DNA from: a virus
IMG/VR virus record: IMGVR_UViG_3300045988_098562
Coordinates: 19,484 to 83,483 of that record
Length of the DNA stretch: 64,000 bases
Reading direction: 5' to 3' (one strand)
Below are positions 3,037 to 41,892 of this stretch, one piece after another. The notes under the pieces were generated by a model that saw only the letters and a program-made list of their open reading frames with translations, searched no databases and had not been told where the DNA came from. The position numbers were made by a program, and so were the translations under genes. Numbering within the stretch: the first letter of the stretch is position 1; the number at the start of each line of letters is the position of its first letter.

Positions 3037-6000
3037 ATGGAAAATAAGGAACAGACATTGGTAGAGAAATCAGGTTTCTTACCATCTACTGGATTAAGAG
3101 GGTATAATGCCGGAGTTCCTACGCGATATGAAGAAGAATCTTCTCTTATTGAGGGAGCAAAAAGAGAGATGGAGAGGATGAAAGTAGGTTCATATACTCC
3201 CCCGGTATCAGCCATAAATCCTGATGATGATTCAGAAAAAGGGTCTGATATTAGCGGAATAGATACTTCTTTTGATGTAGACACATCTTTTTCTGGACTA
3301 AAATCGGCTCTGAATGGTGGAGATGATCCAAGAAAGAAGAAAGAGGAGTCTTATAATAAGTTAAATTCCATGATAAAATCTATTCAAGATAAATCAAGGA
3401 ATACTTATTCTGGTAAACAAACGTCTTATGGTGAGGTTATAGCTGGTAATCAACAGTCATCTGCTGCTGATTTTGGTGTATTTGGTAAAGGAAGAACTAT
3501 TAAGTTAGATGAAGCATATGACTTTTTATCCGATGGGAACATCGGTCTTGCAAAGTTTAAAAGTTATATGCCAGGAAGGGATAATGAAGATTATTACGGA
3601 AGAAGGCAAACTACTTGGAATAAGGCTGTTAATGGCATAGGGAAGCTTGTCACAAAAACAGCATTATATGGTGTATCAGGAGTAGTAGGTATTATCCCGG
3701 CTGCGTATAATCTTATAAAGACTGGTACGTTATCTTCAGCATTTGACAATGATTTTACACGGACCATAAATGATATAGATGAAAGAATAAACCACTCTCT
3801 TCCTCATTATTATACAAGAGAAGAGCGTGATATGGGATTTTTGCAGAGTCTTGGAACTGCAAATTTTATTTTTAATGATGTTATTGGAAATGGTCTATCG
3901 TTTACGACAGGCGCTATTCTGTCTGCCTACCTTACAGGTGGGATGGGTGTGTCAAGTCTTGGAGCTGTTGGCGCTAAAGTAGGGATGAGAGTGGCCGGAA
4001 AGATGGCAGCGTCTAAGATTGCGGCAAGTGCTGTAAAATCCGCTTTTGGAGCGTATAGAGCAGGAGCGATGTACGGCAGGGCCATAGGCAATGTGGCCAA
4101 GGTAGGAGTAAATACGTTTGTGGGCGCCGGCTGGGAGTCTGCCGTGGAAGCTCAGTCCTTCATGAAAGACTCTGAAAGTAAATACAAGGAATATTTTAAA
4201 AATATGTATGGTCGGAATCCTAATCAGTCTGAGATGGCTGAATTTAAGAGTTCTATTTCCGATACGGCAAACAGCATATTCTTAGCTAATATGGGTATAG
4301 TTGGATTATCCAATTATCTTCTTCTGGGAAAATATCTTGGAGTAGACACTGGTTTTGCTTCTAAATACATACCTGGATTAAAGGGTGTATCAAACACATA
4401 TAGGGGATCAAAGAGTTTTGTAGATCGTTATTTGTTTGGATTAGGAACTAAGAAGGTGGCGGGTGATGCTGGAAGATTACAGACGGTAAAAGCAAATTTA
4501 TTCCAGAAATCCTTAGCTACTGTTTGGAATGTATCTAAAAGACCCATATCTGAAGGTGTATGGGAGGAAGGCATGCAAGGTGTTGCTCAGCGCATGGGGG
4601 AAGATTTTATTAGATCAAGATATGATAAGACGTATCTTGATGCTACGTCTTCTATAGTTGATTCTTTTTCTAAGGCCATAGCTGAACAATTTACAACCAA
4701 AGAAGGATTGAAAGAGATTGGCATAGGAGCCCTGATTGGTGGTTTATTTGGAGCCAGAAATGGTGCTTTTGGTTTATATGAAAGGAGAAATAAAGAGCGT
4801 ACTATTAATACTGATGTTGAGAAATTTAATAGTAATAATGCTTTTACTTCTCAATCTGTAAAAGACTCTATGCGAAATTTAGCCGAATTTAATGCTCAAA
4901 TGAATGATCCTGAATCAGATTATTATTCTAAATTTGAATTATCTGACAGAATGGGAATGTTAGAGGATACGGCTAACAATTTCAGGTCAATGGTTAAAAG
5001 CCTTGACGAAAGTGAGTTGGCTTCTGAAATGAAAGTAGATGAAGAAACTGTTAAAAAATACAAGGAAGATATTATAAAAGATTTTGATAAGAAGTTAGCC
5101 AATTATAAAAAAGCTTCTTCTTTCGCTGAGGCTGTTACTGCTGAAACATCATCCGATCTTTACCGGTCTAATGTTGCTAATGCTGTATTTAAAGGCTTGG
5201 ATGCAGAGGATATAGCAATGGAAACATCAAATGATATTGCTGATTATGTAAATGACAATAATTTGTTTGATGATATAAATACGTTTTATTCATTATCAAG
5301 TCAAGCTTTTGATACAGCTAATCAGTTAAGGGAATTGCGTAATGAGATCAATGATCTGAATGCTGAAATAGAGAGGTTGGCTACAACTCCGAGAAGAGTA
5401 GAGGACGGTAATGATACCGAAGCAGAGGCTATAAAACAAAAAACTATTAAATACGATAATCTTAATAAGGAATATAGAAGGTTGTCAGAAGATCTTCTTA
5501 GTAGTTATAAAGAAGTATTTTATTCTTTTGATCCTGGAGTATCAGCTCTTGAGTTGTTTAAATCTGAAACGATAACTGCTGAAGATATATTAAAAGCTTA
5601 TGATTCTGTTGCTTCTTTAAGCACTTATATCGAGAACAATAAGGGGAAGAAAGAAGCAGAGGATTTAAGAAAGATGGTGGTAAAATACCAGCAAGCTATT
5701 ACCCAATATAAGGTTCTACGGTCATTCATGAACTCTATGCAGGATAAGAAATTTATGAGACACGATTTTTCTTTATTCTCTAAGTTCTTAAATGATATGG
5801 TGTCATCCGATACCAAGCCTATAGAAAGTGATCGTTTTTATCAGAACCAGGAAGGAGACAATATCAGTTTAGATGAAAAAATAAATGAACTCCTGAACAA
5901 TGGTGAAATAGATTCAGATGAGGCATTTACAATGAAAGTATTTGGTCATTTAAATGATGGTATAACTCAGAAACCGAAAGAGGATATATTGTCTGATTTT

Positions 6001-33974: not shown

Positions 33975-34337
33975 TTATGCGCCTATGGCTGCCTCTAAAT
34001 TCCCTATAATACCAGTTTCTATGTCATTGATTTTATCATCAATGGTTGAAACCGCATTCTCTAAATCCCCTACAATACTTTCTATATCATCAACAACCGC
34101 CTCCATATTAGCTACAGCCTCATCTGATTGATAATATCTTTCTGTATCTTGTAACGACTCCGGCATATTATCTCTTGCTTCCGTCTCTTCGTCTAAAATC
34201 ATATCAACATCATCCTTGGCTGAATCCAGATTATGCCTAACCTCTGACAGCTTTGATTTGATAAACTCAAGATCTGTTTTATGCTTTTCCAAATTGGAAA
34301 TAATATCCTCTATTTTCTTACGTCTTTTGCTGTTCAT
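33975..34337 (-). CDS. coiled-coil protein (120 aa)
   Basis: Acidic heptad-like sequence; ATGA-coupled to helicase gene. Confidence 0.45.
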   Translation of the reverse strand: MNSKRRKKIEDIISNLEKHKTDLEFIKSKLSEVRHNLDSAKDDVDMILDEETEARDNMPESLQDTERYYQSDEAVANMEAVVDDIESIVGDLENAVSTIDDKINDIETGIIGNLEAAIGA

Positions 34338-35755
34338 GCTTTTATTCTATTATAGTATTCGATAATCTTTTCTTTTCTATCTCCTGGTTTTACCGCCATA
34401 TTCTCAGCCAGGAACCTAAAATATGAAACCGGTATGTCTTTGAATCTAATTCCTTCATATTTTCCAAACCACATTATTATACTGTCAAGATCATCTTCTC
34501 TCCTACCATCTCCATTTACGGATTTAAGAGAAGCTGCCCGGCGAAGGATTTCGTCTTTGGTAACAATATCCCCCATCCTTATATTGGACAGAAGTTGATC
34601 GCCGGCAAACATACACCATCCCTTAGAAGGAAATTGTTCGATCGTTAAATCTTCTATCCGGCCGAAACGCCTCATGTTGTCGCAGCAATCAACTATCAGC
34701 GCCTCTTTCTTGTCAGGGTGGATGCGAACGGCGCGGCCTAATATTTGGTAATACGTTGAATATGAGAACGTTGGGCGACCAAACATCACACAATCAAGTT
34801 CAGGAAAATCAAATCCGGTAGCAAGCGTTGAATAATTAAAAACCACCTTCAACCTACCTTCTTTGAAATCGGATATGATTTGTTCTCTTTTCTTTTTGGT
34901 TGTTAGCGATGTTACGACACCGGTTATGGCTCCCATCCTGGCATTCATGAACTCTGATATTCTATTACATGATTCGATAGAATCCATACAGACCAAAATG
35001 GCTTTACGTTCGTTCATAAATTGAAGAAGGCGCTTGTAGATAGAGTTGTTTAAGCCATTTCTTACAATACTTTCTTTAATAGATTCGTTGGTGTATTCAG
35101 CCCCGGTACTGTTTAGCATCAGAGCCGATTCATCAAACGACCATCGTTCGTACTTAAGTGGACACCAAAACCCTTGAGAAGTTAGTTCTTGTATTTGAGT
35201 CACATGAACTATTTTCTTGAAGAAGTTATGCTCGTCTTTCGTCAGCATATTGAGCTTGCTATAGTTTCCTTCCAGCATGGAACTGTAGGTTCGGAGGCGG
35301 CAGGGAGTGGCGGTGAAGCCCAGCACCTTCGCCTCTGGAAACCCGTTCATAAATTCCATAAATTCAGAACCTTCTTCAGGAGAATATCCTGAATGACATT
35401 CGTCTATCAATAAGGTATCTATCCCTATATCCTTCAACCTCGCTACATCTTTCTTTATGCTCTTTAATGTTGCATAAGTCATAGCCGACAGCTCCTTTAT
35501 ACCACATGAAGCAGAATATATAGTAGGTTTAGAACCGAATGATACGGCCTTTGCATAATTCTGCTCCAGAATCTCTTTTGAGGGCTGTAATACTAATGTC
35601 GGTCTATTTATTTCATGTGCTATCTTGGATATCAGAAGGCTCTTTCCACATCCGCATGGGGCTACGATTATGCCAGGCTTCTTAGATCTTCCTGTAAGAA
35701 ATTTAAGCCCGGCATCTACTGCTTCTTTTTGGTAAGGTCTAAGTTCAAAGCCCAT
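34334..35755 (-). CDS. SF2 DEAD/DEAH-box (DECH) DNA helicase
   Basis: Walker A APCGCGKS, motif II LIDECH, motif III GFTATP, motif VI QILGRAVR. Confidence 0.85.
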   Translation of the reverse strand: MGFELRPYQKEAVDAGLKFLTGRSKKPGIIVAPCGCGKSLLISKIAHEINRPTLVLQPSKEILEQNYAKAVSFGSKPTIYSASCGIKELSAMTYATLKSIKKDVARLKDIGIDTLLIDECHSGYSPEEGSEFMEFMNGFPEAKVLGFTATPCRLRTYSSMLEGNYSKLNMLTKDEHNFFKKIVHVTQIQELTSQGFWCPLKYERWSFDESALMLNSTGAEYTNESIKESIVRNGLNNSIYKRLLQFMNERKAILVCMDSIESCNRISEFMNARMGAITGVVTSLTTKKKREQIISDFKEGRLKVVFNYSTLATGFDFPELDCVMFGRPTFSYSTYYQILGRAVRIHPDKKEALIVDCCDNMRRFGRIEDLTIEQFPSKGWCMFAGDQLLSNIRMGDIVTKDEILRRAASLKSVNGDGRREDDLDSIIMWFGKYEGIRFKDIPVSYFRFLAENMAVKPGDRKEKIIEYYNRIKA

Positions 35756-37991: not shown

Positions 37992-38484
37992 ATCCCATAT
38001 TCTATTAAATATATTTAAAGCTATTCGTATGTTTTAATACATCCCCTCGGAGACCTTTCGGTCTCCTTGGTAGATGTAAATCCCGTTAGGGATAAGTCAG
38101 GATTTCTCCTGTAAGTACCCATCGCCAATGTTATTTAAGGTTTTGAATAAGCAACACTGTTCCTGAATACCAGAACTGTTTAATCACTTACCTTAGAGCT
38201 ACAGACTTGGGCAAACATCCGTAGGTAACTATCTATTCTTAAATAACGTAGCCTTTGTTTCAAGGCTTAGGCTAATAACCCGATCTCTTAAAGAGATGTA
38301 TTAAACTTTTATAATAGAATTATATTGGTTTAATACTATTTGGGGTTATAACACTGATCATAATGCTTGGTCAGTTCTTCTGGTTCTAAATCTTGTCCAA
38401 AATCCATGTTAAAAATATCGTAATTAGTAAAGCACTGTTCCTGCCGGCAGGAAATCTATGAATGCTGCTTTTATTTCTTCAATT

Positions 38485-38508
38485 AGGCCCAAGTGTAACC
38501 TTGGGCCA
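38485..38508 (-). terminator. putative terminator hairpin GGCCCAAG-loop-CTTGGGCC directly after flotillin stop
   Basis: 8-bp perfect stem 6 nt after stop; trailing sequence A/T-rich but not a clean U-run. Confidence 0.35.
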
Positions 38509-38514
38509 TTGTAT

Positions 38515-40215
38515 TTATTTTTTGTCATCTCCTTTTAGCTTCTTTAAAGTATCTGCAATCGGAAGCTGATCAATGACTCCCAATGCCGGAGCGACGGTCT
38601 TGACAACATTGTTAAGGAAATTACCGGTACTGTTCTGACCGCCGTCAAATACTGTGATATTTCCGAGGTTAATGTGCTCAAATGCCTTAACCTGTTCTCC
38701 GGCAATTTCTTTCCACTGATTAACCATCTTGTGCTGGATGGCGATCTGAGGATTGGATTCTGCTGCTTCCACCATGGCCTTAAATCCGTCGGCTTCTGCC
38801 ATCAACGATTTTTTCTTACCTTCGGCTTCTGCCTCCAGCTTCATCTGAATAGCTTTTGCCTCCGCCTCAGCTTTTGCCAAATGTGCTGCTGCTTCTGCCT
38901 CAGCCCGGCGTTTGATCTTCTCTGCCTCAGCATCAGCTTGCAAGATAGCCTCTTCCTTCTGGGTTTCAGCCGGCACAATCTTTTCAGCCTTAAGCGCAGC
39001 CTGAACTTTCTTAGCCTTAGCTTCTTCCACTTCTTTGTCGGCAAGCTCTTTTGCTGTTTTTACAGCCGCTTCCGATTTAACTTTTTCTTCTCCGGCCTTC
39101 TTCTCTGATTGAGCTTTGATGATCTGTAGTTCTGATACTGATACAGCAACCTCCTTCTGGGCATTGTTGTATCCTATAGACGCATTTTTCTCAGCCTCAG
39201 CCTTCTTAATCTGAGCTTCAGAGTCTTGTATTGCTATAGCTGCTTCCTTGTCAGCTTCAGCCTTATTCTTTCCGACTTCTTCCATTCTTTCAGCCTCGGC
39301 TTTATTTACTTCAAGTTCTGCCTTAGATCTTACGATCGCCGATTCCTTGTCGGTTAAAGTTTTTGCGATAACCGCAGCCCTGTCTCTATCTGCTTGAGCT
39401 ACACCGATCTGTTTCTCTTTATCGGTTAAAGCTAAAGCTATTTCTTTTTCTTTCTTCGTTTCAGCTACTATCGTTTCCTTTTCTTTTTCAGTACAAGCAA
39501 TTTGAATCTCTTGCTCTTTTTTGGTATTAGCCACAGCCGTTTCTTTCTCCTTCTGCTGTACAGCAATCTTAATAGCACCCAGCTTCTCCTGTTCTTCGAT
39601 ATTAGCCTGTGCCTCGTTCAGAGCCCTACTTTCAGCCTCCTTACCAAGGTTCATAATATAACCGGCTTCGTCTCTGATGTCACTGATGTTGATGTTCAGG
39701 AGGTAAAGACCTAACTTGTTAAGCTCGTTATCAATGTTCTTTCTTGCCTTATCCAAAAACTCATCCCTGTCAGAATTAAGTTTTTCGATTGTCATTTCAG
39801 CAATAATCAAACGCATCTGACCGTAAACGATGTCCGTAATAAGATTTTCAGTAGATTCGGTATCCATCCCCAAAAGTCTTTCTGCCGCATTTTGCATGAT
39901 TTCGGGATTTGTACTGATAGCTACTGTAATGGTCGTAGGTACATCTACTCTAATATTCTGAGATGACAAAGCACCTGTAAGCTTGCAATCTATTTGCATA
40001 GGCTCCATTGACAAAACATCATAGCTTTGAATAATAGGCAAGACAAATGCCGCTCCACCATGATATAATTTCGCCGATTTCTTTTCCCCACCTGTCTTAC
40101 CGTAAACGACCAAGACCTGATTAGGTTTACATCTACGATACCTTGATAAGACTCCGATGATTGTCAAAATAATCACTACAGCTAAGATAGCTGACACGTA
40201 CATGATTGTTGTCAT
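38515..40215 (-). CDS. floT: flotillin (SPFH/band-7 domain protein, FloT/YqiK-like) with EA-repeat coiled coil
   Basis: N-terminal TM (VSAILAVVIILTIIGVL), SPFH core, long Ala/Glu/Lys-rich EA-repeat region, C-terminal ITVFDGG segment; 566 aa typical of bacterial flotillins. Confidence 0.85.
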   Translation of the reverse strand: MTTIMYVSAILAVVIILTIIGVLSRYRRCKPNQVLVVYGKTGGEKKSAKLYHGGAAFVLPIIQSYDVLSMEPMQIDCKLTGALSSQNIRVDVPTTITVAISTNPEIMQNAAERLLGMDTESTENLITDIVYGQMRLIIAEMTIEKLNSDRDEFLDKARKNIDNELNKLGLYLLNINISDIRDEAGYIMNLGKEAESRALNEAQANIEEQEKLGAIKIAVQQKEKETAVANTKKEQEIQIACTEKEKETIVAETKKEKEIALALTDKEKQIGVAQADRDRAAVIAKTLTDKESAIVRSKAELEVNKAEAERMEEVGKNKAEADKEAAIAIQDSEAQIKKAEAEKNASIGYNNAQKEVAVSVSELQIIKAQSEKKAGEEKVKSEAAVKTAKELADKEVEEAKAKKVQAALKAEKIVPAETQKEEAILQADAEAEKIKRRAEAEAAAHLAKAEAEAKAIQMKLEAEAEGKKKSLMAEADGFKAMVEAAESNPQIAIQHKMVNQWKEIAGEQVKAFEHINLGNITVFDGGQNSTGNFLNNVVKTVAPALGVIDQLPIADTLKKLKGDDKK

Positions 40216-40246
40216 AACTTTTAAAATTTAATTGTTGATGAAAAAA

Positions 40247-40741
40247 TTAGATACTTAATTCTCCTTCTTCATATTTTATATTCACCTTGTCACCGTTTTT
40301 GTAAGTTTTTCCAGACAAGCATCTTACTCTCATTTGCTCCTGTCTTCCATTTTTCGAAATATTTACCATATAATGATTCTTCCCTGATCTAAACACTATC
40401 TCCACCTCTCGGCCATTTAAATCTTCCGGACATTCGTACACCATTTCTTGCTTTAACTTAAGAAGTAACTTATATACGTAAAACAAAACGATAAAGAAAA
40501 GCGATCCTATCACAACCCCTACTAAATGGGAACCCGAAAAGTAGGTAGTCCAGCTATATCCAAGAATAAAATGTGTTATGCCCTTGAATGATATGATGTC
40601 CGACAAAGACATGCTTAAATCAGAAGCACTGTCAATGTCAATATCCGTATCCAGATCAGATCCTAATATCGACAACAAAAACTGTATAACAAAAGCAAAT
40701 GACGCTATTAAAGCCATGCATAAAATTATGTCACTTCCCAT
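40247..40741 (-). CDS. nfeD: NfeD-like membrane protein (short form, YuaF-like) partner of flotillin
   Basis: Multiple N-terminal TM helices then C-terminal beta-rich OB-like domain (GREVEIVFRSG...GDKVNIKYEEGELSI); located directly upstream of flotillin as in nfeD-floT operons. Confidence 0.7.
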   Translation of the reverse strand: MGSDIILCMALIASFAFVIQFLLSILGSDLDTDIDIDSASDLSMSLSDIISFKGITHFILGYSWTTYFSGSHLVGVVIGSLFFIVLFYVYKLLLKLKQEMVYECPEDLNGREVEIVFRSGKNHYMVNISKNGRQEQMRVRCLSGKTYKNGDKVNIKYEEGELSI

Positions 40742-40982
40742 ATCCTTCTGTTATTATTTTGTAAACAAGATCAGTCATATCTTTGATGGTCTCCATATCA
40801 TAATCAATAATAACAATATTGAATTTTTGTTCCACCATCACATCAAGCTCAATCCGATCAACAGAATCTAATCCAAGTTCTTTAAACGACACATCTTCTT
40901 CATGAACTATATCTATTTCCGAATTAAGAAACTGAGTAATAATTATATCCTCTATTATCTTTCTGATTCTTACTTTTTCCAT
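40731..40982 (-). CDS. acpP: acyl carrier protein
   Basis: 83 aa acidic protein with LGLDSVDRIELDVMVEQKF (phosphopantetheine-attachment DS[LV]D motif, helix II) and C-terminal DLVYKI; overlaps NfeD start by 11 nt. Confidence 0.7.
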   Translation of the reverse strand: MEKVRIRKIIEDIIITQFLNSEIDIVHEEDVSFKELGLDSVDRIELDVMVEQKFNIVIIDYDMETIKDMTDLVYKIITEGYGK

Positions 40983-41683
40983 TGCTTTCTAATTTTGTTA
41001 AATAAGTATGTTTTTATGTTTTTCAATCTCTCTTTGTCTGTTTCAGAACTTCCGGTAAATAAATAATCCGGATTGCCTTTAGCCGGCGGCGTAGGCAATT
41101 TAGATACGGCAAACAACCAATCCATTTCCTTATTCTTCTTAGGCTCCAAATAAGGCTCGGTAGCGATCTTAAATTTTTCAGCTATTAAGTCAAAGAGCTT
41201 TGAGTTTTTAAGGTTCATATGGACTGAAAAAGCCTGAGAAGGCGGTTTCCATATGAAGTTACATAAGCTCATTGTGCAATCTCCTGACTCTGCTATATAA
41301 GATTCCGTTACTTGAAGTATGACCTCTTTCTTAAATGAAGTATTACCCATAAACCAACACAATCTGGATTCCGCTTCTTTTCTGCTGACACCTATGTCTT
41401 TTGAATATGATTCGTACATTCCTATCATAATCTTCAACGTTTCCAGAACCTCGTCTGTCATTTCCGGTGTCTCTATATAATTCACAAAAGACGTTCCTTT
41501 GTTGGTCAATCTCATCACGCCTGATTTTAATTTCTCAACCAGGCCAAGCTCTATATATCTACCAGCATCTTCTTCCTGCATGGCTTCGATCATAACCGAA
41601 TCCTTCTGTCTTATGGCAAGAAGATTAGCGAGATCATTAGGAGTCATGTCTGATGCTGTAAGTTGTCTGAAATTGATGTACAT
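40970..41683 (-). CDS. hypothetical protein (237 aa) co-operonic with ACP
   Basis: Overlaps ACP start by 13 nt; no clear motif (SRKEAES resembles PPTase W/FSxKEA but the upstream GxD motif is missing). Confidence 0.55.
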   Translation of the reverse strand: MYINFRQLTASDMTPNDLANLLAIRQKDSVMIEAMQEEDAGRYIELGLVEKLKSGVMRLTNKGTSFVNYIETPEMTDEVLETLKIMIGMYESYSKDIGVSRKEAESRLCWFMGNTSFKKEVILQVTESYIAESGDCTMSLCNFIWKPPSQAFSVHMNLKNSKLFDLIAEKFKIATEPYLEPKKNKEMDWLFAVSKLPTPPAKGNPDYLFTGSSETDKERLKNIKTYLFNKIRKQWKK

Positions 41684-41685
41684 TC

Positions 41686-41892
41686 CTAATCAGCTTTAAT
41701 GAAAATAACATCTCTATTATCCTCCCTCTCCGCGTGACTACACGGACCTGCAATCACATGCACTGCCCCGCATGTAAAGTAATTGAATATACATCCTTCA
41801 CATCCTGCATTTGGCGCCGTAGGTTCCACACATTTTAATCTCACAAGTCCGGCATCAAACACTTCTCCTACTTTAAATTCCTTCTTTTCCAT
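41686..41892 (-). CDS. small Cys-rich protein (68 aa; C-x8-C-x2-C-x7-C-x9-C)
   Basis: First gene of the five-gene operon; five Cys, possible metal site. Confidence 0.5.
   Translation of the reverse strand: MEKKEFKVGEVFDAGLVRLKCVEPTAPNAGCEGCIFNYFTCGAVHVIAGPCSHAEREDNRDVIFIKAD

Follow-up and report, generated by a model that had tools for sequence, protein, structure and literature searches.

In the window, by which we mean the whole 64,000-nucleotide (nt) stretch of IMGVR_UViG_3300045988_098562 and whose coordinates are used throughout unless an L-numbered locus is given, five minus-strand open reading frames (ORFs) form one block at 38515-41892. From 5' to 3', they encode proteins of 68, 237, 83, 164 and 566 amino acids (aa), of which the last two, an NfeD-like membrane protein and a flotillin, make up the phage cassette with which this report is concerned (Table 1). 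The ORF calls agree exactly with a first-pass annotation made from the sequence alone, in which five minus-strand genes had been described; the first two lie 2 nt apart, the next two junctions are overlaps of 13 and 11 nt, and 31 nt separate the last two. A 5' boundary to the block is lacking, as a 200-aa gene lies 15 nt upstream and a DnaB-like helicase gene 13 nt beyond it, and the co-directional minus-strand array extends over ~36 kb, from ~28 kb to 64 kb of the window. At the 3' end, the hairpin with which the same annotation had closed the block does lie just past the flotillin stop codon; however, no U-tract is present on the coding strand, and a terminator role is unproven. A sigma-70 promoter scan, which is not informative for Bacteroides or crAss promoters, returned 26 sites versus 19 expected.

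Table 1. Features of the flotillin locus in window coordinates, with the two cassette genes first
Feature	Position	Strand	Description
NfeD-like partner, 164 aa	40247..40741	-	Three predicted transmembrane helices, acidic D-x-D loop, C-terminal OB-fold domain (~residues 108-164)
Flotillin, 566 aa	38515..40215	-	N-terminal anchor, SPFH/Band_7, long A/E/K-rich putative coiled-coil region, C-terminal Flot domain with VFDGG
Orphan acyl carrier protein (ACP), 83 aa	40731..40982	-	PP-binding domain, LGLDSVD Ser motif; cassette neighbour, not an obligate part
237-aa winged-helix protein (MarR-like N-terminal domain)	40970..41683	-	Conserved replication-module core gene, outside the cassette
68-aa Cys-rich ORF	41686..41892	-	Small variable gene, role undefined; PHROG 33085 match (function unknown, 1.5e-4)
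8-bp GC-rich hairpin	38486..38507	-	7 nt past the flotillin stop codon; 6 of its pairs GC
Small ORF (MDFGQDLEPEELTKHYDQCY...)	38336..38407	-	3' of flotillin; its upstream region is joined to the NfeD-like stop codon in flotillin-deleted relatives (junctions read in L195 and L182)
ORF-less HEARO RNA (Rfam RF02033)	38111..38349	-	Lies within 355 nt (37993-38347) inserted as compared with crAssE-Sib; outside the cassette

The 566-aa protein matched the Pfam profiles Band_7 (PF01145; E = 7.6e-26, 91.7 bits against a cutoff of 23.6, residues 30-211) and Flot (PF15975; E = 3.5e-9, 37.2 bits against a cutoff of 27, residues 450-559). It has a single N-terminal hydrophobic stretch (Kyte-Doolittle values >1.6 in 19-aa windows starting at residues 1-10), and residues 196-480 contain 22% Ala, 18% Glu and 16% Lys, a composition which, taken alone, fits a long Ala/Glu-rich coiled coil. 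By these features the flotillin is judged genuine and full length, as had been proposed in the first-pass annotation. The NCBIfam FloT model (NF058507) was matched at 3e-42 with 145 bits, far under its equivalog cutoff of 700, and by this profile the phage protein is a member of the flotillin family and not a FloT equivalog. In near-identical phages the flotillin ranges from 408 to 659 aa through in-frame deletions and duplications in the A/E-rich putative coiled coil. This variation spans residues ~212-450 (window ~38866-39582; for example P0310, P0330, P0332, P0337 and P0343), often with breakpoints at AEAE(K) motifs that recur in the sequence. If the height of an SPFH cage tracks coil length, such alleles would be natural cage-size variants.

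The 164-aa protein, which had been taken for the cognate NfeD partner of the flotillin, gave no match to Pfam NfeD (PF01957) even at E<=10, nor to any other Pfam, NCBIfam or PHROG family. Since the sequence evidence for NfeD is weak, we relied on the fold. An AlphaFold model predicts long helices at residues 2-25, 52-69 and 72-101 followed by a confident beta domain; hydropathy peaks back three transmembrane helices, and the C-terminal OB-fold beta-barrel expected of NfeD is found in the 164-aa protein. The gene stands immediately upstream of flotillin, as NfeD genes directly precede SPFH genes, and a viral homolog 34% identical to the protein bears the UniProt name 'NfeD-like C-terminal domain-containing protein'. 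An exhaustive profile search recovered a wider partner family of 160-180-aa proteins with 426 representatives. The protein is thus predicted to be NfeD-like by fold, architecture and context and not by sequence threshold, so that the fold and operon position claimed for the partner stand, while membership in PF01957 does not.

Both genes belong to a phage genome. The window region is ~96% identical to crAssE-Sib (OR575929, deposited as 'csAssE-Sib'), a 151-kb virome-derived genome from the human gut whose record holds crAss-type portal, capsid, ring and muzzle proteins, and the two are collinear from 82 kb round to 2 kb of crAssE-Sib, with 51.6 of 64 kb aligned. In that record the corresponding genes are annotated as 'flotillin family protein', 'transmembrane protein' and 'acyl carrier protein'. 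crAssE-Sib is an epsilon crAss-like phage (proposed genus Epsilonunovirus) whose predicted hosts are of the Bacteroides/Parabacteroides type; the paper describing it makes no mention of flotillin, ACP or membranes (PMC11054128). The flotillin was found at the same position in 157 IMG/VR viral contigs at 96-100% identity, many of them 140-155 kb long. The GC content at third codon positions (GC3) of flotillin and partner is 0.38-0.41, equal to that of their phage neighbours, as compared with 0.51 in host orthologs, and the base composition of the cassette is fully ameliorated to the phage. The first-pass annotation had itself raised the possibility that the block is host DNA, and the high similarity to Bacteroidales chromosomal genes would suit a prophage flank or an assembly chimera. 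This explanation is hardly credible given the recurrence in viral contigs, the match to crAssE-Sib, the phage-like GC3 and a flotillin identity of only ~68% to any host copy; moreover, no tRNA or integrase boundary was seen. The cassette is phage DNA, not host flank.

A scan of one genome per bacterial species yielded 80 Bacteroidales loci (Bacteroides, Parabacteroides, Phocaeicola, Prevotella and relatives) with a flotillin 62-67% identical to the phage protein over its full length. A homolog of the phage partner adjoins the flotillin in 79 of these 80 loci, and the partners that were mapped lie nearly always upstream on the same strand across a gap of 18-26 nt. The host partners measure 164-177 aa and the host flotillins 542-566 aa. 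Pairwise, phage and host partners align at 34% identity with E = 2e-28, the range over all hosts being 32-43%. Flotillins of different host genera are mostly 80-95% identical to one another, whereas the phage copies are ~68% identical to all of them, and both phage lineages that carry the cassette fall on one long separate branch, for the flotillin as well as for the partner. Divergence is uneven along the flotillin, with 79% identity between phage and host in the SPFH domain, 76% in the C-terminal domain and 55% in the coiled coil, which is ~32 residues longer in the phage. Taken together, the conserved host pair, the long separate branch and the phage GC3 point to a single capture, not a recent one, of a host two-gene operon, and on sequence comparison the cassette is a diverged copy of the Bacteroidales chromosomal NfeD-like/flotillin operon. 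Among the host loci, one from Phocaeicola vulgatus (L147, 4001-5569) holds a divergent pair, possibly a second copy that is paralogous or was acquired horizontally, whose flotillin is ~72% identical to other Bacteroidales flotillins.

The extent of the cassette was defined by synteny in relatives found through the 237-aa and 164-aa proteins. In L082, whose flotillin is 82% identical, the order is DnaB-200-237-ACP-NfeD-like-flotillin, followed further on by a PD-(D/E)XK nuclease, and the 68-aa gene is absent. In L085 and L086 the order is DnaB-199-121-236-ACP-DNA methylase-98-53-radical SAM-radical SAM-PD-(D/E)XK, SAM denoting S-adenosylmethionine; in L088 it is DnaB-200-236-PD-(D/E)XK with no intervening genes; and two distant phages, L084 and L087, have the 236-aa gene without ACP or flotillin. 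A relative of the 237-aa protein is present in at least 468 IMG/VR contigs, as compared with 157 for the flotillin. The 237-aa gene, which relatives carry without the cassette, therefore belongs to the core of the replication module, and from it to the nuclease gene extends a variable cargo slot, a hotspot of epsilon crAss-like genomes. The unit proper consists of the NfeD-like and flotillin genes; the ACP, 237-aa and 68-aa genes are its neighbours, not its components. In the slot of L085 and L086 (6941-9946), the methylase, two small ORFs and the two radical-SAM proteins stand in place of the pair; they may form a DNA or nucleotide modification module.

The ACP adjoining the NfeD-like gene was correctly recognised in the first-pass annotation. 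The 83-aa protein matched Pfam PP-binding (PF00550) at 7.7e-6 with 26.5 bits, above the curated cutoff of 20.8, and PHROG 5934 'acyl carrier protein' at 2.1e-8, and the phosphopantetheine-attachment Ser is kept (LGLDSVD in the window, LGLDSLD in L082). It resembles other phage-encoded ACPs of PHROG 5934 in being a small PP-binding protein with a DS(L/V)D Ser motif, and falls well below the NCBIfam ACP models (28-29 bits versus cutoffs of 66-106). The gene evolves quickly, with a nonsynonymous divergence (dN) of 0.60 between the window and L082. A Pfam scan of 50 window ORFs and the annotation of crAssE-Sib revealed neither a phosphopantetheinyl transferase nor an acyl-handling enzyme. In the flotillin-less L085 and L086 (6675-6938 in each), Asp replaces this Ser in the ACP-like protein (LGFDDLD), which by this motif could not act as a true acyl carrier.

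The coupling of this ACP to the cassette, by contrast, did not survive comparison. The first-pass annotation had proposed a single five-gene operon that couples the ACP to flotillin and NfeD and serves as a replication or assembly platform or steers the FtsH protease. In this model's favour, the overlaps and tight spacing suggest co-transcription, and the ACP adjoins the cassette in both flotillin-bearing lineages. Links to FtsH are established for the flotillin of B. subtilis and for HflK/C of E. coli, the latter forming with FtsH an SPFH membrane cage around a client and being linked to the stability of phage lambda CII. Epsilonunoviruses encode a repressor and anti-repressors, and a lysis-lysogeny decision may exist in them (PMC11054128). 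However, the five genes do not co-occur across related genomes: the 237-aa gene occurs without the others in L084, L087 and L088, the 68-aa gene is missing from L082, and the ACP stays beside the 236-aa gene in L085 and L086, where flotillin and NfeD-like genes are replaced. The ACP was also present in 80/80 close relatives whether or not the flotillin was, including at least 17 from which the flotillin had been deleted, and neither an ACP nor a 237-aa gene was found beside the flotillin pair in the Bacteroidales host operons. The ACP goes with the 237-aa gene, not with the flotillin. Since the phage protein is, in addition, an ortholog of flotillin and not of HflK/C, we consider the five-gene model very unlikely and largely refuted by synteny. 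No link of the phage pair to FtsH was seen, and the platform function is further called into question by the losses described below.

Intact copies of the cassette are under strong purifying selection. The ratio of nonsynonymous to synonymous divergence (dN/dS), summed over 80 variants relative to the window copy, was 0.06 for both flotillin and partner. Between the window and L082, the dN of flotillin (0.12) was lower than that of DnaB (0.15) and synonymous divergence (dS) was saturated; the cassette is thus kept across phage lineages with saturated synonymous sites. Loss was assessed in 80 IMG/VR loci picked by the neighbouring 237-aa gene (97-99% identity), an unbiased sample, of which 79 were informative. 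Both genes were intact in 50 of the 79 (63%), and 29 (~37%) had deletions or truncations. In 17 loci we found a clean flotillin-only deletion (window 40243-38414), which brings the small downstream ORF up to the NfeD-like stop codon and removes the hairpin along with the flotillin. Three loci had lost 40367-38351, five single loci had other deletions, and four had truncated ORFs of 478-526 aa. There are at least six deletion alleles besides the common one and at least three truncation alleles, as well as at least six different in-frame NfeD-like::flotillin fusion proteins, confirmed on long contigs, and one ACP::NfeD fusion protein detected in protein searches. A flotillin allele with a TAA codon plus a frameshift has 348 member sequences, and another, P0313, with 172 member sequences, has an in-frame TAG replacing Gln508 with the downstream frame intact (L178, 4522-4524). 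Recoding of this TAG to Gln is the less likely reading, as crAssE-Sib has no suppressor tRNA (its tRNA-Gln anticodon is TTG); a nonsense mutation of recent date is more probable.

When placed on a tree built from the neighbouring 2.7-kb flank, the loss alleles do not cluster: Fitch parsimony requires at least 17 changes, of which the common deletion accounts for 10, so that the losses must be recurrent or have spread by recombination. In the sequences read, no direct repeat that would explain the recurrent deletion junction was apparent by eye. The partner showed a ratio of nonsynonymous to synonymous polymorphism of 0.084 in flotillin-deleted genomes, as compared with 0.074, a difference to be read with the caution that most of the divergence may predate the deletions. 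The cassette is dispensable, an optional accessory, and natural loss of flotillin in ~37% of loci argues against an essential role in replication or assembly. The many independent deletion, fusion, nonsense and frameshift alleles would also be expected of a functionless passenger, a captured host operon in decay. Such decay is, however, highly improbable in view of the dN/dS of ~0.06 in intact copies, the flotillin dN below that of DnaB, retention in two lineages with saturated dS, the fully ameliorated composition and the 63% of close relatives in which the cassette is intact.

We therefore favour, with a probability of roughly 0.6, the view that the locus carries a host-derived two-gene NfeD-like/flotillin accessory cassette of an epsilon crAss-like phage, whose products would form a membrane scaffold. 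The cassette would be transcribed with the co-directional early or middle replication genes. The flotillin would insert into the host inner membrane by its N-terminal anchor and oligomerise through an SPFH ring, a coiled-coil wall and a C-terminal cap, and the NfeD-like protein would dock onto it by the OB domain. The resulting phage-specified SPFH scaffold may add to or replace the microdomains of the host flotillin, the simplest reading because the cassette derives from the host's own system. The longer and diverged coiled coil suggests that phage flotillin would form separate cages and not mix with that of the host. By this proposal the scaffold would preserve membrane function, in terms of fluidity, stress tolerance and the ordering of membrane complexes, during long infections without lysis, and how far the phage benefits would depend on the host or the environment. 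Long, non-lysing persistent infection has been reported for cultured crAss-like phages (PMC11054128).

Several points weigh against this proposal. The NfeD assignment lies under the Pfam sequence thresholds: only 1 of 71 members of the partner family reached PF01957 (6e-5), and the family profile, run against PDB sequences, touched YuaF (2k14) at E 0.99 only. The frequent loss indicates that any benefit is small or situational, and the host already owns the same operon. With a coil only 55% identical and ~32 residues longer, the phage flotillin may co-assemble with that of the host, compete with it or be indifferent to it. Epsilon crAss-like phages have yet to be brought into culture (PMC11054128).

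The explanation that we rank second, and regard as unlikely, is a role in conflict, in which the phage SPFH scaffold would exclude superinfecting phages at the membrane, or cage and neutralise host abortive-infection effectors that target it. Presence/absence polymorphism together with purifying selection on intact copies is the typical pattern of an arms-race accessory and fits such a role as well as it fits membrane maintenance. The cassette lies in a hypervariable slot which holds methylase and radical-SAM genes in relatives, and a Tad2-like domain occurs in one of the proteins of the window. On the other hand, flotillins are not known among exclusion or anti-defence proteins, PADLOC gave none of the five proteins a meaningful match, and the support is circumstantial throughout. 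A specific form of this idea, which we consider rather improbable, is a private SPFH cage with its own coil length and its own NfeD-like adaptor that would shield a membrane patch from pore-forming abortive-infection effectors or block the entry of rival genomes. If this were true, the presence/absence polymorphism of flotillin and the coil-length variants would be signatures of an arms race, and the cage would give a viral flotillin its first defined function and represent a new type of device for anti-defence or exclusion.

Whichever role applies, a very common clade of human-gut phages keeps a diverged host operon under strong constraint, and the cassette may be one of the factors behind the persistent lifestyle of crAss-like phages, which is poorly understood. 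We know of no clear molecular function for bacterial flotillins and their NfeD partners, and of nothing on them in Bacteroidales. The natural allelic series of flotillin-only deletions, fusions and coil-length variants is suited to tests of the flotillin/NfeD role in the infected cell.

Around the cassette, the 237-aa and 68-aa proteins belong to no Pfam or NCBIfam family, and PHROGs gave nothing useful. A PADLOC scan of six proteins returned nothing beyond a match of the 237-aa protein to LmuC (E 0.0097), which was borderline and was disregarded. The 68-aa gene is 62% identical to its crAssE-Sib counterpart, compared with 97-99% for the flanking genes, and appears from this alignment to be locally hypervariable. 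The HEARO RNA downstream of the flotillin scored 112.9 bits against an Rfam gathering score of 83 and covers the full model (1-211); the HEARO family is the IscB-associated omega-RNA. The insertion that carries it, which marks the slot as an insertion hotspot, lies right after 'TGTTAT' inside a small ORF, and no IscB or HNH ORF lies beside the RNA. HEARO occupies this spot downstream of flotillin in 14 of 80 IMG/VR relatives, and some genomes have extra copies elsewhere (three in L051).

Other variable elements were seen in the surrounding genome. The superfamily 2 (SF2) helicase 3' of the nuclease has ~470 aa in the window (34334-35755) and 817-822 aa in some relatives (L086, 12288 to the end; L173, 7882-10335); the longer helicases carry Hint/homing-endonuclease (intein) domains, an intein presence/absence polymorphism. 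Genes for TnpB/IS605 OrfB are dispersed at differing positions in related phages (L082, 13497-14288; L086, 1592-2812; crAssE-Sib, 58986-60125 and 64190-65413), some of them adjoining the replication module. Among the 50 ORFs scanned, the Tad2-like (Thoeris anti-defence 2) domain was detected with Pfam PF11195 at 5.4e-12; by collinearity with the DUF2829 gene of crAssE-Sib (100391-101146), the ORF is probably that at 18112-18753 on the plus strand.

The first-pass annotation had held a viral flotillin-NfeD pair coupled to an ACP to be an undescribed module. Our literature search found no paper that links crAss-like phages with flotillin or discusses the phage pair, and to that extent the claim holds; however, GenBank already labels the flotillin and the ACP, and SPFH ORFs of phages have been listed since 2006 (PMC1524935). 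The cassette is a host-derived auxiliary set, labelled in GenBank yet unanalysed, and not a new kind of system. Its closest counterpart is the Bacteroidales operon itself, as in B. thetaiotaomicron (L102; a 165-aa gene at 3471-3968 and a 552-aa flotillin at 3989-5647), which has the same gene order, strand, sizes and domain layout. The two differ in the intergenic gap, 18-26 nt in Bacteroidales and 31 nt in the phage, and in their surroundings, the Bacteroidales operon being flanked by host genes and the phage cassette by replication genes and the ACP. Next closest are yuaF (nfeD2)-floT of B. subtilis and yqiJ-yqiK of E. coli, as compared with which the phage cassette is of the Gram-negative Bacteroidales type and phage-encoded, with a partner under the threshold for the Pfam NfeD and YqiJ models. 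HflK/C belongs to the SPFH superfamily like the phage protein but to another subfamily, the phage protein having a Flot C-terminal domain and orthology to host flotillins. Among 50,697 GenBank phage records, the partner was found only in crAssE-Sib and one 8.7-kb fragment. Other SPFH ORFs of phages include ORF098c of the T4-like phage 44RR, ORF064c of Aeh1 and ORF139c of RB43 (PMC1524935), and Vibrio phage KIT04, in which a 'flotillin family protein' is annotated with no annotated NfeD partner. These ORFs, KIT04 included, have an undefined role, are accompanied by no annotated NfeD partner and are at most 30% identical to the phage flotillin, over the SPFH half only, whereas the crAss-like cassette is a complete host-type pair.

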